Of a stretch of DNA of 21,908 nucleotides, positions 2,939 through 21,901 are shown in pieces. How positions within the stretch are numbered: position 1 is the stretch's first letter; every line of letters starts with the position of its first letter. The stretch comes from an uncultured Bacteriovoracaceae bacterium (GTDB taxonomy: Bacteria > Bdellovibrionota > Bacteriovoracia > Bacteriovoracales > Bacteriovoracaceae), in the NCBI GenBank assembly GCA_964012805.1, contig CAXGUD010000056.1, positions 1 to 21,908 of the forward strand, given 5' to 3'. The position numbers and the translations under genes were made by a program. Under the pieces are notes generated by a model. It ran no database searches. It worked only from the letters and a program-made list of their open reading frames with translations, and was not told the origin of the DNA.

Positions 2939-3277
2939 CTATTTTATTGGTGTTGCTCCACTTTCAGTTCTTATAATCTTGCCATCCTTAACAGTATGCA
3001 CTGCCATAATAGCTTCTTTACTTCCATCCGGGAAACTGCCCATATTATGCATAACTAAAATATCATTATTTTCATACAAACATCTGTTTTCACTAAAAGT
3101 CAGTTTACCCTCTCCCATTGCATTAAACATGCCAGTAACAGTAACTTCCCATTCTTTTTTGGGAACTGATTCACCCATCTGATGGCGCACAAAAATGAAG
3201 TCTTTGTGTAAAAGGTCTAAATAGGCAGACAGGTCTTTATCCTTAAGGCACTTAATCATTTTTTTATATACCGACAC
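2939..3277 (-). CDS. SnoaL/NTF2-like family protein
   Basis: 112 aa, GTG start with AGGAG RBS. The pattern of N-terminal helices (DLSAYLDLLHKDFIF) and C-terminal 'TVKDGKII' is typical of the NTF2-like fold. Confidence 0.75.
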   Translation of the reverse strand: MSVYKKMIKCLKDKDLSAYLDLLHKDFIFVRHQMGESVPKKEWEVTVTGMFNAMGEGKLTFSENRCLYENNDILVMHNMGSFPDGSKEAIMAVHTVKDGKIIRTESGATPIK

Positions 3278-5495: not shown

Positions 5496-6905
5496 CTATA
5501 ATTCTTCTTTATTTTTAATAAATTTTTTGGCCATGCCCTCTTTAGTAATCTGTCTGGAGCGTGCAATCGCAAAAGAACCGCTTGGCATGGATTGACCAAT
5601 AGTAGACCCGCTCGCAACAAAGCACCGATCACCAATTTCAACAGGAGCAATCATCTGAGTATCTGAGCCCACAAAAGAGTCTTTTCCTATCTTGGTAAAA
5701 TGTTTTTGTGCGCCATCATAATTGCACGTTATAAAACCACAGCCAATATTTGTCCTCTCACCAACCTCAGCATCTCCCACATAACTCAAATGAGAAACTT
5801 TAGACCCTTCACATAAAGTCGCCTTTTTAATTTCTACAAAGTTACCTATCTTCACAAAATTTTCAGCAATAGTTTTAGGTCTAAGATGAGCAAAAGGTCC
5901 TATTTTTACATCTTGAAAAACCGTTGCTTCATCCAAATAGGAATAGGATTTAACAACAGTACCGTCCCCCACTAAAGAGTTTCTTACGACTGCTCCCGCC
6001 TCAATAATACAACCTTTACCAATAGTGGTTTTCCCAAAGAAGAGAGTATTCGGGTATATGACAGACCCTTCCCCAATAACAACATCATCCTCTATATAAA
6101 CAGTATCAGACATAAGAAACCTTACGCCTTTCCCCCGGAGCCTACATACTTTTCTGTTTAGAAGCTCTTTTTCAGCTTCTTCTAATTGTTCTAAATTGTT
6201 AACTCCAAGAAAACATTTTTCATCGCTAGATAAAATAGGTTTGACCATATCACCAGACTCAATTACATCAGTAAGGTAATATTCTCCTTTATCACCTCTC
6301 GGTTTAAGGCCCTGAAGTTTTTTAACAACAAAGTCTGTTTTAAAAAGATATAAGCCAGAATTAACTTCCTTTACTGACCTTTGAAGCTCATCTGCCTCCT
6401 GTTCTTCAACTATGGACAACCCCGACTCACTTCGAATAATCCGTCCATATCCATATGGGTTAGGTGTTACAAAAGTAGCTAGAGCTCCTTGTACCTGATC
6501 TTCTAAACACTTCTCATAGAGAGCTTTAATATTTTGTGCAGTTAATAAAGGAGTGTCTGCGCAAAGCACTAGAGTTAAATCATATTGAGAAGAGCTTTCA
6601 CAATGAGCCGTAAAATATGAGTTAAGAGCATCACCCGTACCAAGAGGCTTTTCTTGCAGCGAAAAGCTTATAGGAATATTTGGATAACTTTCTTTAACAT
6701 ATTTCTCAACGTCTTCACTCTTGTGCCCTGTTACAACAGAGACAGATCCATCCACATTCTCACTTCTAAAAAAATCGAGTACCTGAGTTAAAGGGTAATC
6801 AATTAATTTTTTACCAAGTAATGGAGCCAATGGTTTGGCATCAATACCGACTAAACGAGTTCCTTTACCACCAGCTAAAATGACTGCACGAACCGATAAT
6901 CTCAT
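5496..6905 (-). CDS. glmU: Bifunctional UDP-GlcNAc pyrophosphorylase / glucosamine-1-phosphate N-acetyltransferase
   Basis: LAGGKGTR, LGTGDA, YGYGRI, EVNSG, EYYLTD, hexapeptide repeats, GPFAHLRP, GNFVEIK, HLSYVGD, CNYDG; immediately upstream of glmS. Start placed at ATG 6905 (AAGGGG RBS) rather than 6968. Confidence 0.97.
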   Translation of the reverse strand: MRLSVRAVILAGGKGTRLVGIDAKPLAPLLGKKLIDYPLTQVLDFFRSENVDGSVSVVTGHKSEDVEKYVKESYPNIPISFSLQEKPLGTGDALNSYFTAHCESSSQYDLTLVLCADTPLLTAQNIKALYEKCLEDQVQGALATFVTPNPYGYGRIIRSESGLSIVEEQEADELQRSVKEVNSGLYLFKTDFVVKKLQGLKPRGDKGEYYLTDVIESGDMVKPILSSDEKCFLGVNNLEQLEEAEKELLNRKVCRLRGKGVRFLMSDTVYIEDDVVIGEGSVIYPNTLFFGKTTIGKGCIIEAGAVVRNSLVGDGTVVKSYSYLDEATVFQDVKIGPFAHLRPKTIAENFVKIGNFVEIKKATLCEGSKVSHLSYVGDAEVGERTNIGCGFITCNYDGAQKHFTKIGKDSFVGSDTQMIAPVEIGDRCFVASGSTIGQSMPSGSFAIARSRQITKEGMAKKFIKNKEEL

Positions 6906-10871: not shown

Positions 10872-12260
10872 TTATCCAAAAAGCTTCCAAACCCACCTTA
10901 CAATAGAAAGGTTTTTAAAATCAGGGGCATACCTAAATGGAGCATTAACCCAGTCTAAAAGCTGGAATCTTCTAACAATAGACTTTTTGTTGGAAAAAGT
11001 GTCAAAGCTAGTTCTTCCATGATATCGATTAACTCCACTCTCACCAAAACCGCCAAAAGGTAGATCCGAAGAGGCTAATTGAATGGCATTATCATTAAAA
11101 CAAATGGATCCCGATTGGGTATCACTTTGGATTCTTTGGCGTAAATGACTGTTTTTAGAGAATAAGTAAACAGCTAATGGCTTTGGTAGAGAATTGATAA
11201 TAGAAATACAGTCCTCAAAACTTTCTACCTCCAATATCGGTAAAATAGGACCAAATATTTCTTCGCTCATAACTTTGGAAGATGTATTGGCTTCAACAAT
11301 AGTAGGTGATATATAAAGAGCATCTTCATTGCTTTTTCCACCATACAAGATCTCTTCTTCTGAAAATAAGTTCATAATTCTTTGGAAGTTTCTTTTATTA
11401 ATAATTTTTCCATAGAATTCGCTAACCGCTGGATCTTTACCATAAAATTCTTCTATATAATGGATTATCTTACCGATAAGTTTCTTTTTTATATTCTTTT
11501 CAACTAGGATATAATCTGGTGCTACACAAGTTTGGCCAGTATTCAAATACTTTCCCCATACTATTCTCTTTGCCGTCAGATCAATATCATTTTCTCCAAA
11601 AATTACACAAGGGCACTTTCCGCCAAGCTCAAGAGTGACAGGAGTTAAAAATTTCGCGGCTTTTGCAGCAACAATCTTCCCAACAGAAGTGCTACCGGTG
11701 AAAAATATATGATTAAATTTTTGCTCTAAAATGAATTGGGTTACCTCTACACCACCATTAATAACTGCGATTTCCTCAATTTTAAAAGTTTCTTCAATAA
11801 TTTTCTTTATTACCTCAGCCGATCTAGATGATACCTCTGAAGGCTTCACAATAACGGTATTACCTGCGGCTATTGCACCAACAAGAGGAATAAAGATAAG
11901 ATGAAAGGGATAATTCCAAGGTCCTATAATAAGGACTTGTCCAACTGGCTCACTAACGATAGAGCTCACCGAAGGAAAAAGCATTATAGGAGTTGATATC
12001 CTAACAGGTCTCATCCACTTCTTTAATCTTTTGATACCTTTAGTAATTTCATGGATAATATACCCAGTTTCAGCAAGATATGATTGGTAAGGAGATTTTT
12101 TTAAATCTTCGTTCAATGCTTCACCAATGAGAGTTTCATTTCTTACAACCGCCTCCTTCAAGTTTTTCAACTTTTTAAGGCGAACTTCATAGGGATATGT
12201 CTGCTTGCTGTCAAAAAATTTCTTTTGCTTTTCTATAATTTGCAAAATTTCATCTTCCAT
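10872..12260 (-). CDS. Aldehyde dehydrogenase, class-3 / fatty- or aromatic-aldehyde type
   Basis: PWNYP, KPSE, FTGSTSVG, LELGGK, GQTCVAPDY (catalytic Cys), EEIFGP, PFGG. ATG 12260 has a GGAG RBS; alternative start 12272. Confidence 0.95.
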   Translation of the reverse strand: MEDEILQIIEKQKKFFDSKQTYPYEVRLKKLKNLKEAVVRNETLIGEALNEDLKKSPYQSYLAETGYIIHEITKGIKRLKKWMRPVRISTPIMLFPSVSSIVSEPVGQVLIIGPWNYPFHLIFIPLVGAIAAGNTVIVKPSEVSSRSAEVIKKIIEETFKIEEIAVINGGVEVTQFILEQKFNHIFFTGSTSVGKIVAAKAAKFLTPVTLELGGKCPCVIFGENDIDLTAKRIVWGKYLNTGQTCVAPDYILVEKNIKKKLIGKIIHYIEEFYGKDPAVSEFYGKIINKRNFQRIMNLFSEEEILYGGKSNEDALYISPTIVEANTSSKVMSEEIFGPILPILEVESFEDCISIINSLPKPLAVYLFSKNSHLRQRIQSDTQSGSICFNDNAIQLASSDLPFGGFGESGVNRYHGRTSFDTFSNKKSIVRRFQLLDWVNAPFRYAPDFKNLSIVRWVWKLFG

Positions 12261-12353
12261 GGAAGGCTCCATTCAGAAAATTTTAAATAAAGAATTACAA
12301 TAAATGGCAAATTGGAAAAAGTCTTTAATGTAGTGAATTAAATTAAAAAAAAC

Positions 12354-12581
12354 TTACTTAGACTTGGTTTCGGTAGTGCCAGATGAATCTTCTGCCTCTA
12401 AGTCCTCTAAATCTAGTTTTATATCCAATAGCTCTGACCTGCTTTGATCTGGCAAAGTAGCAATACACTCTCCCTTTAAATCTTCTCCTAACTCATTTTG
12501 AACTCCAAAAGAAGCGGAAGAAAGAAAAAAAGTGAAAAAAATGAAAGTATACTTTTTTAAATTTAATTTTTTAAAAATCAT
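12354..12581 (-). CDS. Small secreted acidic peptide 2 (75 aa), Bd0108/Hit-like candidate
   Basis: ATG 12581 with AAAGG RBS, 13 nt after the upstream stop. Sec-type signal MIFKKLNLKKYTFIFFTFFLSSASFG, then VQNELGEDLKGECIATLPDQSRS...EDSSGTTETKSK. Confidence 0.75.
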   Translation of the reverse strand: MIFKKLNLKKYTFIFFTFFLSSASFGVQNELGEDLKGECIATLPDQSRSELLDIKLDLEDLEAEDSSGTTETKSK

Positions 12582-12594
12582 TTTAAACCTTTGC

Positions 12595-12819
12595 CTAAGT
12601 ACTCCGACTACCGGATGATGATGAGTCACTATCTGACTCATCCTCATTCACTTCCTTAGCACCCCTTGATGAGTCATTTATACATTCACAATTATTAGTA
12701 GGACAGCCATCATTAATTTCCTCACCACTTTCTAAATCTTCTGCAAGAATTGGAACCTGTAAACTTACCAGAAGTATAAAATATAAAAAAATTAGCTTAA
12801 TCATATTAATAAAAGTCAT
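12595..12819 (-). CDS. Small secreted acidic peptide 1 (74 aa), Bd0108/Hit-like candidate
   Basis: AGGA RBS, starts 8 nt after the RHS gene stop. Signal peptide ending VPILA, then EDLESGEEINDGCPTNNCECINDSSRG...DSDSSSSGSRST. Confidence 0.8.
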   Translation of the reverse strand: MTFINMIKLIFLYFILLVSLQVPILAEDLESGEEINDGCPTNNCECINDSSRGAKEVNEDESDSDSSSSGSRST

Positions 12820-12827
12820 TTTTAATC

Positions 12828-14495
12828 CTAGTTTCCTAGCGTCACACCCGCTGGCCTAATAATTCCCAAAAGAGCCTGGAATGCTGAGGTTACCTGAGCT
12901 GCTATCCGAGAACCAGCGCTTGATTTAACTCTCTTTATATTTCCATAATTATCATAAGTAACATTTATTTTACCAACTTTGCTCATAGCAATTTCAATCG
13001 GCTTTCCTATGGAATTATATTTAAAGGAAAGAGAGCGCTTCTCTTTACTTTCTTTTTTAAAATCCACCATTTTACCAATTCGCCCTTTCCTATCATAAAT
13101 AAGGAGCACACTATTCCCATCTTTATCGAGAGCTTGGGCCAACTTACCTTGTTTATTATACTTAAATCTTGTCGTTCCATCATTTGTTGAAACTTTGGTT
13201 ATCTTGTTAAATTTTTTGTGGTAATCAAGCTTTACAAATTCCCCATCAGATGTTTCTTTTTGAACCAAAAGACCATTTTCGTTATATTTAAAAGAAGTGA
13301 CGTCTTTTTTAGTTTCATCATTAAAGGAAATACTTTTCTCGACCTTTAACGGAAGAGAACAGCAATCATTGTAAGTAGTTTCGGTTTTTACTCCATTTTC
13401 AGAAGTAATTGTTCTATAAGTGTAGGATGATCCATCTTTCCTTCTTCTTAACTCATATTCAAAACGATTTATTTTTTTAACATTTTCTGCATTTTCATTT
13501 TTTACAACGGTCCAATAATGGAGGTCCTTATTTTTTGGGTTGCTACCATATTCATATTCAGTACGAGAACCGTCTCTTCCTATAATTTTTTTAACAAAGC
13601 CCGTACCTTCTTCGTACTCAATAAGCCTTGTCGATTTATCAGAATAAGTAATTTGCAACATATTTTTCTTATCATCATATTTGTGTTTATAAGTATTTCC
13701 TCCTACATCAGTTGCCTCAATCAAATTACCCTTTTCATATTTATACAAAGATTTTCTTTTCCCAATGGAAGAAATACTTTTTACGTTTCCGCTTCCATAC
13801 CATTTGAAAAAAATCTGCTTTGCATCGGAATCTTTAATTGAATCTAATTTATTATTTTTATATTTAAATCTAATAGAATAACCATTACTGTGCGAAATTT
13901 TAATTAGTTTGCCACTTTGATCAAAGTCTTCTCTATTACCATTTGTAAACAAACGAGCATATCCTTTCTTTAATTTAACTACTTTTTGCAATCCCCTTTT
14001 TACAGAGTAAAGCTCAGTACCTTCCCTTAATTTAACTTTAACAAGATATTTCTCACCAAACTTTCTTCTTTTTTCTTCATTATTGGTGAGCTCTTTTTTC
14101 AAATTTTCCCCATAAGAATCATCGATTGACTGCCCCTCCTTTTCCATGGCTTTTATTATCCTTGAAACAGCGTCGTCAATATTTAAATCTTCTTTGGGAG
14201 TGAACCTTGTCACAGCACCTGAGCCATATTCTCTTATAACTACAGAACCATCAGCCGACACACTCAAACTTGTTTCAAAGTTACTTCCCCAACCATAACC
14301 AAACCAACCTCTTTTGGCAGACTTTGAGTTATACGTTCTAGTTATCTTTAAGTTTTTTCCTCCACCTGGAACAACAACATCAGTATAGGAAACATAAAAG
14401 TTTCCATTTTTTAAATTCACTCCTCCCCAAAGAGAGAAGGAAAAAAATGTAAAAATATTTAAAACGAATAGAAGCATACTTTTTAAATTACTCAT
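12828..14495 (-). CDS. Secreted RHS/YD-repeat protein (Bd0109-like), no C-terminal toxin
   Basis: Signal peptide; DUF6531-like start (VNLKNGNF..TD....LKITRTYNS...GWFGYGW); many YD-type repeats (YDDKKN, YNENG, YNKQG, YDRKG, YDNYG); no PxxxxDPxG motif; TAAGGA RBS. Confidence 0.9.
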   Translation of the reverse strand: MSNLKSMLLFVLNIFTFFSFSLWGGVNLKNGNFYVSYTDVVVPGGGKNLKITRTYNSKSAKRGWFGYGWGSNFETSLSVSADGSVVIREYGSGAVTRFTPKEDLNIDDAVSRIIKAMEKEGQSIDDSYGENLKKELTNNEEKRRKFGEKYLVKVKLREGTELYSVKRGLQKVVKLKKGYARLFTNGNREDFDQSGKLIKISHSNGYSIRFKYKNNKLDSIKDSDAKQIFFKWYGSGNVKSISSIGKRKSLYKYEKGNLIEATDVGGNTYKHKYDDKKNMLQITYSDKSTRLIEYEEGTGFVKKIIGRDGSRTEYEYGSNPKNKDLHYWTVVKNENAENVKKINRFEYELRRRKDGSSYTYRTITSENGVKTETTYNDCCSLPLKVEKSISFNDETKKDVTSFKYNENGLLVQKETSDGEFVKLDYHKKFNKITKVSTNDGTTRFKYNKQGKLAQALDKDGNSVLLIYDRKGRIGKMVDFKKESKEKRSLSFKYNSIGKPIEIAMSKVGKINVTYDNYGNIKRVKSSAGSRIAAQVTSAFQALLGIIRPAGVTLGN

Positions 14496-14602: not shown

Positions 14603-15493
14603 TTATGTTTTAATTTTTACAATTTTTAAAATTACAAATAAACCTAAGGCATCTAAGCCAAGAACTAAAATTAAAGCGATATTACCAATGATCGTTGTAA
14701 AAAGAGGCGTCATAGAATCTGGGTCAGAAATATAGTAGATCCCACCTATAGCAAATGGCATTGCTGCGATTGTATAACCTTGAAACTTTCCCTGGGCAGT
14801 ATATTGATCAACCTTTTGCTGAACTCTGATTCTCTCTCTAATGACTCCAACAATTGTATCAAAAGTCTCCGCTAAGTTACCACCTGTCTCTCTTAAAATA
14901 TTAACACCCGAAACAAACATATCATTATCTTCAGTCGGAACCCTTTTGACTAAATTATCAAAACACTCCTCTAAAGGGACACCCAATTTATTTTGTTGGA
15001 GCATTAAGTTGAATTCTTGTGAAATAGGAGCTGGCATTTCATCAACAACCATGCCGACAGCTTGAGGCATGGATAAACCGGCCCTAATACCATTTGAAAG
15101 CAGAGTCAGTGCGTCAACCATTTGATCACTGTAAGCCTTAATTTTTCTCTCGACGAGCATATCAACAAATGGTTTAGGGATTTTAAATCCAATAAACGAT
15201 AATATTATAGCAAAAAAAACACCCATTCCCCAATTCCCCATAAGTCCAAACAGGGTAAGGGTAACTAACGCTAACCCTATTGAAAGGGAGAGAAGCACAT
15301 AAGTTATATGATCATCTTCAGCCTCTATAAAAAGAAGATCAAATTTTTCTTGAATATAATTTCTTGTACCCAGAGTTTGATTTTCAATCCAAGTAAAAAT
15401 TTTGTTCGAGTTTCTAAAAACATAAACAAATATTAATAATCCAACTCCAAAAATAACGTTTGTTTTTGTAAAAAGGCTAGCGCTATTTTCCAT
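14603..15493 (-). CDS. tadB: Tad pilus inner-membrane platform protein TadB (T2SS-F family)
   Basis: DALTLLSNGIRAGLSMPQA, PISQEF, ETGGNLAETFD, RERIR; multiple TM helices; follows cpaF; AGGAG RBS. Confidence 0.9.
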   Translation of the reverse strand: MENSASLFTKTNVIFGVGLLIFVYVFRNSNKIFTWIENQTLGTRNYIQEKFDLLFIEAEDDHITYVLLSLSIGLALVTLTLFGLMGNWGMGVFFAIILSFIGFKIPKPFVDMLVERKIKAYSDQMVDALTLLSNGIRAGLSMPQAVGMVVDEMPAPISQEFNLMLQQNKLGVPLEECFDNLVKRVPTEDNDMFVSGVNILRETGGNLAETFDTIVGVIRERIRVQQKVDQYTAQGKFQGYTIAAMPFAIGGIYYISDPDSMTPLFTTIIGNIALILVLGLDALGLFVILKIVKIKT

Positions 15494-15505: not shown

Positions 15506-17608
15506 CTATTTATTTTTAAAGATTCCTCTAGGAATGTTGTATCCCTTTTTTTCTAGTGTCTCTATAAACTTGGGTATAAAGCCTGATGCCTGGAATTTAC
15601 CAAGAATCTTTCCGTTTTTATCAATGCCTTCTTGTTTAAAATTAAATATATCTTGCAAAGTAACGACATCACCCTGCATTCCACCTACTTCTGTAATAAA
15701 CATAACTTTTCTGGACCCATCATCCAAACGCGACTGCTGGATAATTAAGTGAACCGCTTTAGAAATCATTTCTCTTATCGCCTTAGCACTTAATCCTGCT
15801 CCAGCATACTGGACTAAAACTTCTATTCTACCAATACATTCTCTAGGATTGTTAGAGTGAACTGTAGTCATAGAACCATCATGGCCAGTTCCCATTGCTT
15901 GCAACATATCTAGAGTTTCGCCACCTCGACACTCACCTACAACAATCCTATCTGGCCTCATCCTCAAAGTCTGCTTAACAAGGCAACGAATATCAATCTC
16001 ACCTTCTCCTTCGAGCGAGGGTGGCCTCGTTTCAAGTCTTACAATATGCTCTTGTGGAAAATCTAATTCAGCAGAGTCTTCACAGGTTATAATTCTTTCA
16101 TTGGCTTGGATAAAAGAACCTAAAACATTTATTAGAGATGTCTTACCAGATCCAGTTCCACCACTAACAACAATATTCCGATGAGCCTCAACTCCAATTC
16201 TTAAAAAGTCGGCCATTTCTTGTGTCATTGATCCAAACTTTATTAGATCTTTATAAGTCAACCTAGATTCAGGAAATTTTCTTATTGTAATTGCAGCGCC
16301 ATCAATAGCAGATGGTGGAATTATAGCATGAACCCTAGAGCCATCAGCTAATCTTGCATCCACATATGGTGTTTTTTCATCAATTCGCCTTCCAATAGGT
16401 GCAACAATCCTTTCTATAACATTTACCACTTGTCTATTATTTGTAAAAATAGTCTCAGATAATTTTAATTTTCCACTTTTTTCATAATAAATTTTCTTAG
16501 GACCAACTACCATTATTTCTGATACTGCTTTATCCGATAAAAGATCTTCTAAAGGTCCTAAACCTAGAGCTTCATCTAAAATCTCTTTGACAATCTTATT
16601 CATATCATCTCGAGTATTAAGAATACCTTTTGTGTCCTCTTTTCCTAAAAGCTCTACTACTAACTTTTTAGTTTTTTCCCTTAAAATAATTTTTGCTTTG
16701 GGATCATTTTCATCTGACTTATTTATATCCATTTCTTCAACGAGGGATTTATGAATACGACTTTTTAAATCTATCCATTTTTCCTTTTCTTTCTCAGCTC
16801 CTTTTTCACCCTTACCAGAAGTCTTTTTTTCAACTTCACTAGGCTTATTAAGCTTGGCAAGAACTTTCAAAACATTTTTTTGAGTTATTTTTCTAACGAC
16901 TTCAACAATGCCTTTAGCAAAAGCACTATTCTTACCAATAACCATAACTGGTTTTTTAGAACTCAATGCCAAGGTGCATGCTTGATCATCTTTTTGAATA
17001 TTCGCAAAAACAGGCTTTCCTAAAGTTTTTCCAACAATTTCGGGTGACACAGGATGACCTTTAACCATCTGATTTAAAATAATTTGAATCATGTCCTTAG
17101 GAAACATCATTGATACAAGATCAGAATAAAGCCTCTTTGTTTGATTTAAAGCAAGAATATCCGGTGTAACCACTAGAAAAATTAACGTTGAAAACTCTAA
17201 AGCCTTAAGTGTTAATTCATTTAATTCACTTCCACAATCAATTATTGTAATTGGAAAAACACTAGTTATATTTTTTAATGTTTTTCCCATTCCTTCAACA
17301 TTTATGTTTTCTGATTCCATTGGATCAGTAGGCATACCGATATAACTAACATTTTGTGGATGCATAGCTATGAATTGCTGAATTGACCTGGCATCTAATG
17401 TTCCTGAGAATTCTGATAAATCCTTAATGGTTTTTTTCGACTTCAAGCCAGTTAAGAAGTTTTGATCACCACTAGCTTTTTGATCAAAGTCTAAAAGAAG
17501 AACCTTATTTCTAATTTCAGCTGCGAAGGAAAAAGATAAATTAGTTGATACTTGACTTTTACCAACTCCACCTTTTCCCCCAAGCACTGAAATTATGTAT
17601 CCGGCCAA
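15506..17608 (-). CDS. cpaF: Fused CpaE/TadZ (MinD/ParA-like) - CpaF/TadA pilus assembly ATPase
   Basis: N-terminal ~245 aa: GGKGGVGKS, LLLDFD, IIDCG. C-terminal: GLGPLEDLL, VDARLADGSRV, Walker A GGTGSGKTS, EDSAEL, LRMRPDRIVVGECRG, His-box TGHDGSMTTVH. One continuous frame, TTG start. Confidence 0.93.
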   Translation of the reverse strand: MAGYIISVLGGKGGVGKSQVSTNLSFSFAAEIRNKVLLLDFDQKASGDQNFLTGLKSKKTIKDLSEFSGTLDARSIQQFIAMHPQNVSYIGMPTDPMESENINVEGMGKTLKNITSVFPITIIDCGSELNELTLKALEFSTLIFLVVTPDILALNQTKRLYSDLVSMMFPKDMIQIILNQMVKGHPVSPEIVGKTLGKPVFANIQKDDQACTLALSSKKPVMVIGKNSAFAKGIVEVVRKITQKNVLKVLAKLNKPSEVEKKTSGKGEKGAEKEKEKWIDLKSRIHKSLVEEMDINKSDENDPKAKIILREKTKKLVVELLGKEDTKGILNTRDDMNKIVKEILDEALGLGPLEDLLSDKAVSEIMVVGPKKIYYEKSGKLKLSETIFTNNRQVVNVIERIVAPIGRRIDEKTPYVDARLADGSRVHAIIPPSAIDGAAITIRKFPESRLTYKDLIKFGSMTQEMADFLRIGVEAHRNIVVSGGTGSGKTSLINVLGSFIQANERIITCEDSAELDFPQEHIVRLETRPPSLEGEGEIDIRCLVKQTLRMRPDRIVVGECRGGETLDMLQAMGTGHDGSMTTVHSNNPRECIGRIEVLVQYAGAGLSAKAIREMISKAVHLIIQQSRLDDGSRKVMFITEVGGMQGDVVTLQDIFNFKQEGIDKNGKILGKFQASGFIPKFIETLEKKGYNIPRGIFKNK

Positions 17609-17609
17609 A

Positions 17610-19139
17610 CTACCTACCTCTCTTTAAAAATTTTGATTTTATAACCTCTACATTCTCAGAAGCTGTTTCAATAATTGATGGAGTAGCAAAAACGACAAAC
17701 TGATTTCTATCATTAAGATATTTTTTAGATTTAAGAAAAGAAAACAATGGTACGGCAGGTTGACCACCACCTGCTTGTGAGTAGTCTATTTCACCATAAG
17801 GTGGATCTCGATCAAATTGAGTTGAAGTTTTTTTGATTGCAACACCACCCATCACTGCCGTTTCTCCTGATCTTACATCTACTTCACTATTCAGCTTATT
17901 TGACGTAGTGGATGCAGATCCATCACCTTGGCTAACTCCAACTGAAACTTGAAGACTTATAATTTCTTTACTCTTTGATTGGAGTTGAGGCTTAACTTCT
18001 AAATTAAATTTTGCAGTTGTTGTTTGTTTTGTTGAAAATTGACCTTTTGCTGCGACTGAAGAGGATGTTGTTGTTTCCTTACTGATCGTACCCTTTTGGC
18101 CGTCCTTAACAATAATCATACCTGATTGCACAACTCTTGCATAGCCTGCGGCTTTAGCTGAGGCCAATTTAGGAAAAAGGTTCGATATTGTTCCAGCAAG
18201 TGTTCCGTTAGAATCTGTATAAATATCTCCGGCCTTAGACCTTCCATATTTAATAACACCACCACCACCACTCATTAAAGGGCTCCACTTAAAGCCAAAT
18301 ATTTTCATATACTCTTTTACGACCTCTACAAACTGTGCCGATATTTTAATCATCTTTTTAATAGGTAATGATTTTTTTGCTTTCGAGGGTACTACCTTTA
18401 AAAAGTTGCGAAGCAATGCCTTTCCTCCCTGCACCGTTTGAACAACCCTCTCTCTTTCTGCAATAGTCGCAATGCTACCAGGGATAAATGCTGTGGCTAT
18501 TTTTTGAGCGTAAGGAATATCTTTTTCAGAATCAACCCTTCCTACTAACCAAAATGTGTTATTAACAACTCTAACCCGGACTTTTTTTAACCCCATTCTA
18601 TTTAGCTCAACTTCCATCTTTTCTGCTACTTTCAGTTGAGATTGATGTGAAAGTTCAACAAAATTTAATACATCTGGATACCCTTTAAGAACTATATTTA
18701 TCATTCCCATGTCAGATGGAACAACAATCTTTCCTCCAACATAGACATTCTTACCTTTTATCCCTATTTCTATACCTTCAATATCACCTAAATACTCCTT
18801 CAACTCCATAACTTTGCTAGATAAGTCACTAGAGGTAATTGTCAAGAGATAACGGGCTCTAATATCACCTACAGTATTTCTAATTATGACGGAGGTCTTA
18901 CCAGGCTTAAGTCCCTTAAAAGTAATTTCTCTTTTTTGAGGAATAATTTGATAAGTCAGTATTGAATTATTACCTACTTGAATTTTTGTCGAAGGTGCAA
19001 AATCTAATTGAATAATTCTATCAATACCTAACACAACCTCCAGGGGTTGTTCTTTAACCTCTCTATTACTTTGAGCAAATAAGTTAAAACTTATCAGGAC
19101 TCCAATTATGAAAGTTTTTGTTTTAATAGTAAAATTCAA
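17610..19139 (-). CDS. cpaC: Tad pilus secretin CpaC/RcpA
   Basis: Signal peptide, pilus-formation N-domain (IQVGNNSIL...ITFKGLKPGKTSVII), BON-like segments and secretin C-terminus (VRSGETAVMGG, VPLFSFLKS, FVVFATPSII); lies between cpaB and cpaE/F. Confidence 0.88.
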   Translation of the reverse strand: MNFTIKTKTFIIGVLISFNLFAQSNREVKEQPLEVVLGIDRIIQLDFAPSTKIQVGNNSILTYQIIPQKREITFKGLKPGKTSVIIRNTVGDIRARYLLTITSSDLSSKVMELKEYLGDIEGIEIGIKGKNVYVGGKIVVPSDMGMINIVLKGYPDVLNFVELSHQSQLKVAEKMEVELNRMGLKKVRVRVVNNTFWLVGRVDSEKDIPYAQKIATAFIPGSIATIAERERVVQTVQGGKALLRNFLKVVPSKAKKSLPIKKMIKISAQFVEVVKEYMKIFGFKWSPLMSGGGGVIKYGRSKAGDIYTDSNGTLAGTISNLFPKLASAKAAGYARVVQSGMIIVKDGQKGTISKETTTSSSVAAKGQFSTKQTTTAKFNLEVKPQLQSKSKEIISLQVSVGVSQGDGSASTTSNKLNSEVDVRSGETAVMGGVAIKKTSTQFDRDPPYGEIDYSQAGGGQPAVPLFSFLKSKKYLNDRNQFVVFATPSIIETASENVEVIKSKFLKRGR

Positions 19140-19147
19140 ATTATTAC

Positions 19148-19960
19148 CTATTGCTTCTTATACTTCTCTTGGAAAAATGATTTAGCTTTGGCCATATTTT
19201 CTTTCCCAACTAAATCCATCATTCTGGTTCCTTTTAAAGCTACTTTTTTATCATCATTATTATTTCTTAAAATCAAAAATGGTTTTTTTCCTGTTTCTTC
19301 AATTAAAAAAATTATTTTTTGAACTTGATAAGGTTCTAGTTCAAGGGTCACAGTATTATATTGGCTGTATGTATTTAGCTTCATTTTTCTAACAGAGTTA
19401 GCCCCCTTAATTCCAATAAGGGGAATAGAATTAGTCATACTAATACCTGTAGATAAAACAAGAACATCTTGAAGAACGGTTTGGACAAAAGATAAGTCTT
19501 TTCTACTTCCTGATGCAAAATCTATTACACCAACAACATCAACTCTATCGCCTGGTTTTATCAATTTGCTAACAGCTTGTTGCTCAGTAATAGTTATACT
19601 CATAGCCCTTTTCCCTAAACTTATTTGTCTTGATAAGCCAGTTGAAGAACCTGGGTAGGTTACACGAGGTTTAGTAATCTGCTCGCCCTTTAAAATTGGT
19701 ACTGTAGCGATAGTATTTTTTAATTCTTCTCTCGAGCTGAAGGCATGCTTATGTTTAAAAGAACTAGGAACGGATATCTCTTGAAGTTTATCATCATCTA
19801 TCAGTTCCAATTCTTGAATATCAACTTTTGCAATAACAACAGGAACTTCTCGACCAAATTTTGTTTTGAAATTTTGCTCTCTTTCGTCAATAAAAGTATA
19901 GACCATAAACATTGCAATACTTGCAATGACCAAAGCTAGAGTAAAAGCCCGAGTATTCAT
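19148..19960 (-). CDS. cpaB: Flp pilus assembly protein CpaB/RcpC
   Basis: N-terminal TM, SAF-like VVIAKVDI...PILKGEQIT, GKRAMSI, IKPGDRVDV, VLQDVLVL, VTLEL, LILRN. Confidence 0.92.
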   Translation of the reverse strand: MNTRAFTLALVIASIAMFMVYTFIDEREQNFKTKFGREVPVVIAKVDIQELELIDDDKLQEISVPSSFKHKHAFSSREELKNTIATVPILKGEQITKPRVTYPGSSTGLSRQISLGKRAMSITITEQQAVSKLIKPGDRVDVVGVIDFASGSRKDLSFVQTVLQDVLVLSTGISMTNSIPLIGIKGANSVRKMKLNTYSQYNTVTLELEPYQVQKIIFLIEETGKKPFLILRNNNDDKKVALKGTRMMDLVGKENMAKAKSFFQEKYKKQ

Positions 19961-20068: not shown

Positions 20069-20569
20069 TTAATTTGATAAACTACAGGAAGATGAGATTG
20101 ATACCCCACTTAGATTATCTACGTACACATTATTTTCACTAAAAATATAAGATGCTGAGCAAACTCCGTAAGCTGAAAATACCTTAATTAAGCCACTCAC
20201 AGTATCTTCAATTCCTTTTTCACAAGTATCATCCCTAGGCCTAAGTGCAGGGACCTTAAAACATGGTCCCAACTGATTGTCTCCCCTTTGCTCCTTAGAA
20301 AAGCCAAACGAATAAGCTCCGACTCTTGAAACCCCTTTACTTAAATAGCTATCCATATCTTGATTAAATGGTAAGGTTGAATTGTTTCTAATGGTATAAA
20401 AAAAATACCCTCTCAAAGTTTTCTGCTGATTTATAGAAGCGTTAATTCCTCCTATTACACTAACCATTACAGCAAAAAATAAAATAAAAAATGGCAAAAA
20501 AATTATAAACTCAAATATGGCTTGCCCTTTATCTGATTTAATTTTTTTATTTTTAAGGCTTTTCCACAC
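20069..20569 (-). CDS. TadE/TadF-like pseudopilin
   Basis: Class III signal KSDKG|QAIFEFIIFLPFFILFF (G-1, E+5); four Cys in the C-terminal domain. Start uncertain (GTG 20569 or ATG 20581). Confidence 0.8.
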   Translation of the reverse strand: MWKSLKNKKIKSDKGQAIFEFIIFLPFFILFFAVMVSVIGGINASINQQKTLRGYFFYTIRNNSTLPFNQDMDSYLSKGVSRVGAYSFGFSKEQRGDNQLGPCFKVPALRPRDDTCEKGIEDTVSGLIKVFSAYGVCSASYIFSENNVYVDNLSGVSISSSCSLSN

Positions 20570-20570
20570 A

Positions 20571-21107
20571 TTAACATCCATTATCATAAATTGTTGTATG
20601 AGATGAACAACCTCCTCCATCAATAGAAGAAAAAGCTTCACAAATTCTTTCTATACACTCCTGTCTTGATGGCTCTCTTCCTAAAAATGATTCAGAGATT
20701 AATGTAATAGGACCTTTTCCACCAATCATAGAAGAAACACCAAAATCCATCTTAAAAGAGATATAATTTCCAATAAAAGGCTTGTTTGCAAAGGATCCAG
20801 GATTATTTACCATGAGCTCTGGACGAGCTCCTCCAATTAAGTATTCTACTTTAAATCTATCATAAACTTCTTTTGCTTTTTCAATAGCGCTTGAGTCACC
20901 ATTTTGAATAGAGTTATTATTTTCATCACTAACCAAATAAGCTCGACTGGCATTAAATACTGCATAATGGGCATAAAAACCATTTGTTGCATTAAAAGCA
21001 ATTCTTACAAAGGTCAATAAAATGGTAAAAATAACAGAAAATGAAACTAAAAACTCAATTGTTGATTGACCTGTTTCCTTTTTTAATTTTTTTTCTTTAT
21101 CTTTCAT
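20571..21107 (-). CDS. TadE-like pseudopilin
   Basis: KKETG|QSTIEFLVSFSVIFTILL; 'YAVFNASRAY' resembles the TadE AAxxAAR helix; four C-terminal Cys, ending DNGC. Start ATG 21107 overlaps the end of the upstream gene. Confidence 0.82.
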   Translation of the reverse strand: MKDKEKKLKKETGQSTIEFLVSFSVIFTILLTFVRIAFNATNGFYAHYAVFNASRAYLVSDENNNSIQNGDSSAIEKAKEVYDRFKVEYLIGGARPELMVNNPGSFANKPFIGNYISFKMDFGVSSMIGGKGPITLISESFLGREPSRQECIERICEAFSSIDGGGCSSHTTIYDNGC

Positions 21108-21408
21108 ATGGAGCCGTAGGAGTAAAAAATCTTGTCGAATTATCACCAACATAGGATCTATGAACACCAGAATAATCTTCTTCAGGATTCACCGTTGGGT
21201 TTATGTTACTTTCATATAAACCATGCCTATAGCTAACCATAAAAACTTTTCTAAGTGCTGTAAAAAACTCAGAATCTTTACCTAAAAACCGCTTAAATAC
21301 TGGAGAATTAAAAACCGCCACTGCAAGAGATACTACTACTGCAGTTAAGAAAATATATTCTACAACTGTTTGGCCTCTTTCATTCATCTTTGTTTTAACT
21401 TTGTCCAT
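21097..21408 (-). CDS. Flp-family pilin-like protein with C-terminal extension
   Basis: NERG|QTVVEYIFLTAVVVSLAVAV: Flp motif with E+5 and Y+6. Confidence 0.8.
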   Translation of the reverse strand: MDKVKTKMNERGQTVVEYIFLTAVVVSLAVAVFNSPVFKRFLGKDSEFFTALRKVFMVSYRHGLYESNINPTVNPEEDYSGVHRSYVGDNSTRFFTPTAPYER

Positions 21409-21901
21409 AAATCTCTATTCCTAGCCACCCCCAAGAAAGCAAAATTACTGGGGTAAAGGGTATTTTCATTCCAAAAGCATAGATCTTTGAATAATTTTTT
21501 CTTCGTATGTGTTCTATTATATTACTTAAATTTCCCAAAATATTTAAAATAATACAAAAACCTGTCACAAGGATTGTAACCCAAAGGATGTTCAATAAAA
21601 ATAAATCATGATAGCTGGTCGGGACCAATAAAAAAATTGAAGCCAAAAGTTTGCTATCACCACCGGCCATAATTTTTTGAGGATGAAGGAAAAAGATAAA
21701 CCCCAAAACTATAAACATAATAGAATAGATATAGTGTCCAAAGGTAAAGTTATAATTTTCCTTAAATATCGATATAAAGAAAAAATATAAAATTAAATTT
21801 AAAATAATATACTGGTTTGGTATTTTTCTATATCTAATATCTAAATAAGTTACAATTATGAGCTCAAAAAAAAGAAACAAATAAAGCGGCATTGGTATCA
21901 T
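21395..21901 (-). CDS. cpaA: Prepilin peptidase CpaA/TadV (A24 family)
   Basis: YLDIRYRKIPN and MAGGDSKLL (two catalytic Asp), IPF near the C-terminus, polytopic hydrophobic; no N-terminal Cys-rich methyltransferase domain. Confidence 0.9.
   Translation of the reverse strand: MIPMPLYLFLFFELIIVTYLDIRYRKIPNQYIILNLILYFFFISIFKENYNFTFGHYIYSIMFIVLGFIFFLHPQKIMAGGDSKLLASIFLLVPTSYHDLFLLNILWVTILVTGFCIILNILGNLSNIIEHIRRKNYSKIYAFGMKIPFTPVILLSWGWLGIEIYGQS

Follow-up and report, generated by a model that had tools for sequence, protein, structure and literature searches.

Two small, probably secreted peptides behind the RHS gene of a tad pilus operon in an uncultured Bacteriovoracaceae bacterium and their possible place in a two-slot hit locus

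Introduction

In Bdellovibrio bacteriovorus, Bd0108 (Hit) is encoded by the first gene after the RHS gene bd0109 at the end of the tad operon, and both genes are co-transcribed (PMC3818213). According to the accessible text of Prehna et al. (2014; PMC4267844), Bd0108 is a disordered protein with a C56–C59 disulfide which binds Bd0109 via residues 24–66 of its N-terminal half, with a Kd of 45 μM and a ratio of about 3:1, and encapsulation of Bd0108 by Bd0109 has been proposed. Loss of bd0108 alters the growth mode of the Bdellovibrio cell itself, as described in the accessible sections of PMC3818213 and PMC11323537. Moreover, a non-coding RNA of 261 nt at positions 96455–96716, raised in all bd0108 mutants, has been reported from the locus (Capeness et al., 2013; PMC3818213), and control of the tad operon by FliA has been shown for Bdellovibrio only (PMC5430801).

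The closest described arrangement is the tandem pair BMS0183/BMS0184, found at this position in Bacteriovorax marinus (Crossman et al., 2013; PMC3526173), for which Prehna et al. (2014; PMC4267844) stated no significant homology to Bd0108. Among the literature searched, these genes are named only in the two papers, whose accessible text describes neither a family motif nor a promoter or binding model and is at odds over the homology to Bd0108. The tandem pair as such is already known, and its homology to Bd0108 is disputed.

Here, the window, i.e., the whole 21.9-kb contig (21,908 nt) from the 4.47-Mb genome of an uncultured Bacteriovoracaceae bacterium, is analyzed, in which two small genes, A and B, follow a Bd0109-like RHS gene. 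As judged by the published description, the pair resembles BMS0183/BMS0184 of Bacteriovorax (Halobacteriovorax) marinus SJ in consisting of two small signal-peptide genes in tandem after a bd0109 orthologue, in belonging to the same predator family and in encoding products shorter than Bd0108, whereas the window peptides have 74 and 75 aa and their genes are separated by just 13 nt that lack a promoter motif. For the family, such a pair is nothing unusual; added here are a binding prediction for A, a two-slot assignment with a lost promoter and a re-reading of the Bdellovibrio small RNA.

Materials and Methods

Signal peptides were judged via hydrophobicity and a cleavage heuristic as well as by comparison with relatives. 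Besides the window, 178 RHS loci were fetched; after dropping duplicates and loci with less than 900 nt downstream, 150 were kept in all. ORFs were filtered for being small and hydrophilic and for having a signal peptide and a Cys residue. The family profile was built from the mature parts of 135 Bacteriovoracaceae peptides, with the window left out.

Results

All genes of the locus lie on the minus strand in the order tad operon, RHS gene, peptide A, peptide B and aldehyde dehydrogenase. The operon, starting beyond the contig end, comprises a TadV-like prepilin peptidase (21395–21901), three tad operon ORFs (20069–21408) with a weak class III signal match in one of them, RcpC/CpaB (19148–19960), an RcpA-like secretin (17610–19139), a TadA-like ATPase with fused ParA/MinD-like domain (15506–17608) and a TadB/C-like T2SSF protein (14603–15493), the latter encoded by the only T2SSF gene of the operon. 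The aldehyde dehydrogenase (10872–12272) is the 3' neighbour of B, and such a gene is located near the peptide array in at least 26 of the 68 Bacteriovoracaceae loci. Sequencing runs containing window DNA are mostly marine metagenomes, and a metagenome scan gave at least one locus at 99% among the matches listed. With the queries used here, the locus was not seen in the same-genus genomes G226 and G227 (72 and 68% complete, respectively).

Both small ORFs are real genes. As stated in the original prediction, they follow the RHS gene with gaps of 8 and 13 nt and have their own, albeit modest, ribosome-binding sites. From the RHS stop at 12828, an 8-nt spacer (12820–12827, with an SD-like AGGA overlapping the stop codon) leads to the ATG of gene A (12819–12595), which is separated from gene B (12581–12354) by a 13-nt spacer containing an SD-like AAGG (12582–12594). 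In the mechanical ORF list, the start of B is extended to 12647; since the 13 relatives of B (60–85% identity) have lengths of 74–75 aa, the ATG at 12581 is taken as its start. Peptide A (74 aa) occupies the first slot, i.e., the position of Bd0108, and bears Cys39, Cys44 and Cys46, while the second-slot peptide B (75 aa) has Cys39 as its single Cys. For A, the heuristic predicts a Sec signal peptide of 26 aa (12742–12819) cut before Glu27, which in relatives is variable up to a fixed mature start. The mature parts of A and B (48 and 49 aa) have net charges of −11 and −9 at Ser/Asp/Glu contents of 52 and 39%, respectively, and a comparison of charge with hydropathy places both on the side of disorder. 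Heuristic, relatives and charge-hydropathy position thus support the proposed build of an approximately 26-aa signal peptide and a probably disordered mature part rich in Ser, Asp and Glu. The AlphaFold model of B (pLDDT 64, pTM 0.15) shows one short helix.

In the three most distant of nine close relatives of A, residues 27–58 are kept at 27 of 32 positions and the signal peptide at 8–10 of 26. The core of B, Leu31–Asp57 (12411–12491), is near-invariant across 11 aligned sequences, i.e., B and 10 of its 13 non-self matches. Judging from such alignments, A and B are evidently under selection as proteins. Expression is weakly indicated by a contig from RNA run X11 spanning both genes (12392–12851, with 3 differences) and by cover of parts of both in run X15, contigs of this kind being unable to show strand, level or freedom from DNA. 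In X16 and X17, i.e., two of the four RNA runs, the peptides are not covered; as the flanking genes lack cover too, this carries no weight as evidence. Pfam holds no family for A or B. A lipobox Cys at the signal cleavage site is absent from both, the first Cys being residue 39, 13 residues after the predicted cut. Further paralogues were not found among 5684 small ORFs of the genome, where the next-best match has an E value of 4.3. A possible dispersed paralogue, faintly similar to the family at E 4.3, is found near 60215 on the plus strand of another contig (G000:C21), where an ORF with a good ribosome site encodes a secreted peptide of 48 aa with three Cys.

The RHS gene (12828–14495) encodes a secreted RHS/YD protein of 555 aa with a DUF6531 N-terminal domain, a partial YD-repeat shell and a C-terminal helix. 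Its structural model (pLDDT 92) consists of an N-terminal domain with helical insert, a YD-repeat sheet and a final helix and matches Rhs cages and teneurins; no Bd0109-like structure was present among 29 solved relatives. The YD-repeat beta-shell fold is shared with the Rhs/YD cages of T6SS Rhs effectors, the Tc BC component and teneurins. In contrast to these cages, the window protein has about half the length, is Sec-exported and has no toxin tail, its putative cargo being encoded by a separate gene. The best named relatives (41–53%) belong to Halobacteriovorax, Bacteriovoracaceae and related bins. Matches were found in 224 of 238 class genomes and in 125 of 141 sampled phylum genomes; of the sampled families with more than one genome, f10 alone gave no match with this query (0 of 10 genomes).

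Immunity genes are usually small and located immediately behind an RHS gene, and A and B, sitting exactly there, could be immunity or orphan modules of a Rhs polymorphic toxin. This explanation is largely refuted and extremely improbable, as a toxin domain was not found in the RHS protein, its RHS_core score is 35 bits versus a cut-off of 2000, almost all 224 matching class genomes have just one copy of the gene and the protein ends alike across the phylum. A protease tail was not found either. The C-terminal [KR]PAG word of the protein resembles the Rhs cleavage motif, without its Asp. In one other locus (L074, G349:C1:96867–98499), the bd0109 orthologue lies in two frames (256 and 325 aa), representing either a sequencing error or a lesion; bd0109 has been reported as undeletable, yet it is split there.

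With mature A, the RHS protein gives a predicted complex scoring 0.75, compared to 0.00 for the best of three controls, so that the complex modeling suggested with the original prediction supports binding of A. The score mark applied is attained by 116 of 157 solved pairs, compared to 2 of 215 mismatched ones, and holds only roughly here, the alignments being self-made. Individual runs resulted in 0.76, 0.75 and 0.44, with at least 54% of contacts common to the runs. Within the complex, A has a pLDDT of 45–57 and its fold is uncertain. The surest contacts are those of A residues 46–51 with RHS residues 27–34, 54–58 and 93–95, and the predicted interface of A, its conserved core of residues 29–58 (12646–12735), coincides with the part fixed in relatives. 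Solved Rhs cages enclosing a polypeptide may have biased the model, and acidic disordered peptides are not necessarily represented by the controls. Altogether, binding of A to the RHS protein is predicted. Conservation of the RHS side of the interface (0.79 versus 0.71 within the family, with lower agreement outside) was considered as well and dismissed as too weak to count.

Cys378-Cys379 of the RHS protein (13359–13364, minus strand) represent a CC pair found in 55 of 67 family proteins and in 17 of 18 proteins of families f6 and f18; RHS proteins of family f8 have four other Cys instead. A disulfide between peptide and RHS protein was rejected, as RHS Cys numbers are even in all 67 family proteins and the CC pair is kept in the peptide-less families.

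The predicted binding would also fit A and B being cargo of the RHS shell, serving as signals to prey or sibling predators and not as RHS regulators. Such a role, raised as cargo delivery or receipt in the accessible text of PMC4267844, would agree with a YD shell free of toxin or protease tail and with peptides which diverge fast between families and occur in 1–3 copies per locus. However, the peptide cores are strongly conserved within the lineage and Bdellovibrio cells deprived of bd0108 are themselves altered in growth mode (PMC3818213, PMC11323537, as far as accessible), making a cargo function improbable. Regulation of the RHS protein by the peptides is the preferred reading.

Small ORFs at this position are well kept in relatives, as the original prediction had implied. 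At least one such peptide is encoded in 67 of 68 Bacteriovoracaceae loci, always within 1.55 kb of the RHS gene, and in 54 of 58 loci from 18 other peptide-bearing Bdellovibrionota families, the loci counted stemming from kin genomes and not being independent. Compared to 120 small signal-peptide ORFs in the complete 4.47-Mb genome, a chance location can be dismissed. Within the family, 0, 1, 2 and 3 peptides were called in 1, 11, 35 and 21 loci, respectively, where a few third calls are false ORFs. For the 6 loci outside the phylum sample, the count was one. Besides those of families f6 and f18, five loci were left empty by the filter, and in these such an ORF is visible by eye, once inverted. 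Locus L081 (f23) has two hit-like ORFs on the opposite strand as an inverted array, 60–680 nt past the RHS stop.

Families f6 and f18 keep the RHS gene and have no such peptide in 18 loci. In most of these loci (L107–L120, L124, L125 and L140), the RHS stop is immediately followed by an ORF of about 100 aa rich in Lys and Ala, which is conserved, has no signal peptide and is unrelated to the hit-locus peptides. First-slot peptides of family f4 (L130–L135) are 97–140 aa long and rich in Gly, Met, Gln and Pro, with Cys present.

Cys occurs in 223 of 225 ORFs from the loci versus 69 of 120 small secreted ORFs genome-wide (obtained with a similar filter). The Cys count is odd in 58 of 66 first-slot peptides, and exactly one Cys is found in 67 of 71 later-slot peptides. 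When scored against profiles of the two slots, A reaches 15.2 bits on the first and 7.3 bits on the second, while B reaches 4.6 bits on the first and 14.6 bits on the motif-led second; cross-scores are matched by only 0–2 of 200 shuffles. Assignment of A to the first and B to the second slot fits these profile scores. As A and B fit separate family-wide slots, their duplication would be older than the window's lineage, in agreement with the old duplication initially proposed. The shared motifs cited for it are present, whereas the pairwise likeness of A and B is not significant (31% of 2000 shuffles score as high), their kinship being visible only at the family level. Not tenable is the suggestion that two peptides are a trait of this particular lineage, as the tandem pair of B. 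marinus is already in print and Bdellovibrio also has a second peptide gene.

In most relatives, the second gene is preceded by a sigma-54-type motif. Its pattern was written after seeing the Bdellovibrio locus L066 and applied within 130 nt upstream. In Bacteriovoracaceae, the motif is found before 45 of 53 second, 11 of 18 third and none of 66 first genes and, correspondingly, in family f8 before 8 of 11 second and none of 13 first genes; the remaining families show it ahead of 13 of 40 genes called first and 5 of 14 called second, at a background of 102 of 4500. A TGTC-N9-GACA repeat is located near these motifs in 28 of 56 cases in the family, 6 of 8 in f8 and 5 of 18 in the remaining families (background 104 of 3000). 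The window's genome encodes rpoN. Unlike in most relatives, however, the 13-nt spacer between A and B contains neither a sigma-54-type motif nor a terminator-like site; among family loci encoding more than one peptide, 52 of 56 have gaps of at least 91 nt, and the 13-nt coupling occurs also in L174 and L177. Likely, B has been folded into the operon transcript in the window's lineage. In a quick tree of RHS proteins, that of the window forms a long, deep branch. Sigma-54-type motifs elsewhere in the window, at 3120–3134 and 6628–6642 (minus strand), both lie inside coding sequences (SnoaL-like gene, glmU).

In Bdellovibrio, the second unit after the RHS gene is the published 261-nt RNA, to which B corresponds in position. 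Both published primers match L066 exactly (96555–96574 and 96633–96652) and lie inside a 66-codon ORF on the bd0108 strand (L066:984–1184, corresponding to G328:C1:96483–96683, minus strand), which has an AGGAG site, a signal peptide and one Cys and is located wholly within the RNA. A sigma-54-type motif (96758–96744) and also an inverted repeat are found upstream. This ORF is open in 9 of 9 intact-looking aligned loci of the Bdellovibrio-type genus (62–68 aa), and codon differences in close pairs are 11 synonymous versus 1 non-synonymous and 13 versus 3, respectively. NCBI lists a hypothetical protein 95% identical to its product, while Rfam gave no match in L066 or L061. In the freely accessible main texts searched, no paper links the ORF to the RNA, and the accessible texts of PMC11323537, PMC11870529, PMC12075869 and PMC13689555 contain nothing on a second peptide. 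Since the ORF lies wholly inside the RNA and evolves as a protein, the "sRNA" is likely an mRNA. Going by these sequence features, the ORF is very probably translated into a second secreted peptide, and a dual role as RNA and mRNA may exist. Differences from B are the publication of this unit as non-coding, its own sigma-54-type motif and a basic peptide (+7), which scores 6.9 bits on the family profile (7 of 200 shuffles as high).

Alternatively, the RHS protein might be bound by A only, with B having another partner, e.g., a sensor acting on the sigma-54 promoter, and forming a feedback arm. Consistent with this are the distinct profiles of the two slots, the own promoter motif of second-slot genes with the nearby TGTC-N9-GACA repeat and the rise of the Bdellovibrio RNA in bd0108 mutants. 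On the other hand, a G[EQ]-x2-8-C motif is common to both slots (80 of 137 family peptides versus 18 expected), both slots cross-score and B is still conserved here without a promoter, so that a separate partner of B appears quite unlikely. Preference is given to B as a second ligand of the RHS protein.

A direct relation of A and B to Bd0108 by sequence was not detected. The Bd0108 sequence was taken from L066, encoding a 101-aa protein with the published landmarks, and the words GED and CRECIA given for it in the original prediction are correct there. The argument built on them fails: ECI is present in just 10 of 137 family peptides and was rejected as family motif, the spacing from GED to ECI is 22 residues in Bd0108 versus 13 and 6 here, and the ECIA match between B and Bd0108, comprising four residues only, was discarded. 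The G[EQ]-x2-8-C motif of the family is represented in both A and B by G32-E33 to C39. Regarding Cys patterns, A shows C-x4-C-x-C and B one Cys, CxxC being absent from both. An N-terminal block around residues 32–40 is confined to the Bdellovibrio-type alignment.

With NCBIfam NF053838 (hit_Bd0108, cut-off 40 bits), no match at E up to 1 was obtained for A or B, whereas the positive controls L066 and L061 reach 102 and 130 bits; across the genome, the best score is 13.3 bits, i.e., a Bd0108 orthologue over the cut-off does not exist elsewhere. The profile from family peptides recovers both window peptides (24.0 bits for A and 13.1 bits for B, 0 of 200 shuffles as high each) and not Bd0108 (1.7 bits, 78 of 200 shuffles as high). 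Conversely, on a profile of 12 Bd0108-type peptides, A scores −0.1 bits (78 of 100 shuffles as high) and B 3.1 bits (0 of 100), with 2 of 100 shuffles or better being attained by 10 of the 137 peptides of the family. In pairwise comparison with Bd0108, 98 and 53% of shuffles score as high, and profile-profile alignment (hhalign) gives E values of 0.23 and 0.14, at a test power that is low, as comparison of the two family slots yields only E 0.08. The first-slot positional orthologue of a sister genus (L062) likewise escapes NF053838. Direct homology was rejected on pairwise, HMM (both ways), hhalign and NCBIfam results, all negative or marginal. Judged by sequence, neither A nor B belongs to the Bd0108 family. 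Of the proposal of very divergent hit homologues, the positional link stands, while homology was not detectable.

Likeness to the Bd0108/Bd0109 system is found in position and build. A is the first gene after the RHS gene at the tad operon end, like bd0108, and in both cases a signal peptide is followed by a disordered mature part with a Cys-bearing core and a low-complexity tail; RHS binding has been measured for Bd0108 and is predicted for A. In contrast, Bd0108 has 101 aa, a CxxC and a conserved NPGEDPNEA-type block, whereas A is a strongly acidic 74-aa peptide with three Cys and no detectable sequence similarity. From position and build only, common ancestry of A with Bd0108 is considered fairly probable. 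As an alternative, the peptides may be unrelated to Bd0108 by descent, the slot having been filled by replacement, as implied for B. marinus by Prehna et al. (2014). All homology tests with Bd0108 fail, as replacement would predict, and in f6 and f18 the slot indeed holds an unrelated gene; nevertheless, both orders share the layout of two slots, the second gene being led by a sigma-54-type motif, and 10 of 78 outside peptides match the family profile at p up to 0.025, compared to an expectation of about 2. We regard replacement as rather unlikely; it concerns the question of ancestry and is compatible with the same function.

Other loci show variants of the Bd0108 type. In genome G257, a peptide of 124 aa that lacks Cys and contains the Bd0108 word GEDPN is encoded behind one RHS gene (L070:1819–2193, plus strand), and a second RHS locus (L071) has an 85-aa CxxC peptide without GEDPN, as if the conserved halves were split between both loci. 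The first ORF after the RHS gene in L068 (G346) is of Bd0108 type with 65 aa, its C-terminal half apparently frameshifted and without Cys.

Discussion

For the window, we consider it probable that both peptides are exported, that A binds the RHS protein and tunes the pilus and growth state as Bd0108 does, and that B is a second ligand. In the proposed mechanism, A and B would leave the cytoplasm via Sec, and the RHS protein would accommodate residues 29–58 of A along its DUF6531 domain and YD strands, which fits the published encapsulation idea. Binding of A would then tune the RHS control of pilus and growth state, like Bd0108 in Bdellovibrio. B would be a paralogous second RHS ligand, probably inducible in most relatives, in line with the rise of the Bdellovibrio RNA upon bd0108 loss. 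Here, B would be made constitutively with A on the operon transcript. The RHS protein can apparently work without a peptide, as families f6 and f18 keep the RHS gene and have peptides in 0 of 18 loci.

The odd Cys counts suggest that a free thiol is kept. Since the RHS protein offers no free Cys partner, links between peptides can be guessed, i.e., the free thiol may connect the peptides to each other. Tentatively, a two-peptide hit circuit might be proposed, in which two paralogous peptides, one linked to the operon and the other inducible through sigma-54, share a single RHS receptor and act on it via a free-Cys core, with the inducible one having been misread as non-coding RNA in the model predator since 2013 and both being hard-wired into the pilus operon in the window's lineage.

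How Bd0108 and Bd0109 gate predation versus prey-independent growth has been a standing question since the discovery of the hit locus. Reports of genomes lacking bd0108, as in the accessible text of PMC11870529, may reflect search failure, as slot peptides escape sequence searches. A second secreted peptide encoded in the hit-locus "sRNA" would make the effects of RNA and peptide separable in the model strain, and the sigma-54-type promoter would point to the class of regulator involved. Moreover, the complex model names residues that can be mutated on the peptide and on the N-terminal domain of the RHS protein.
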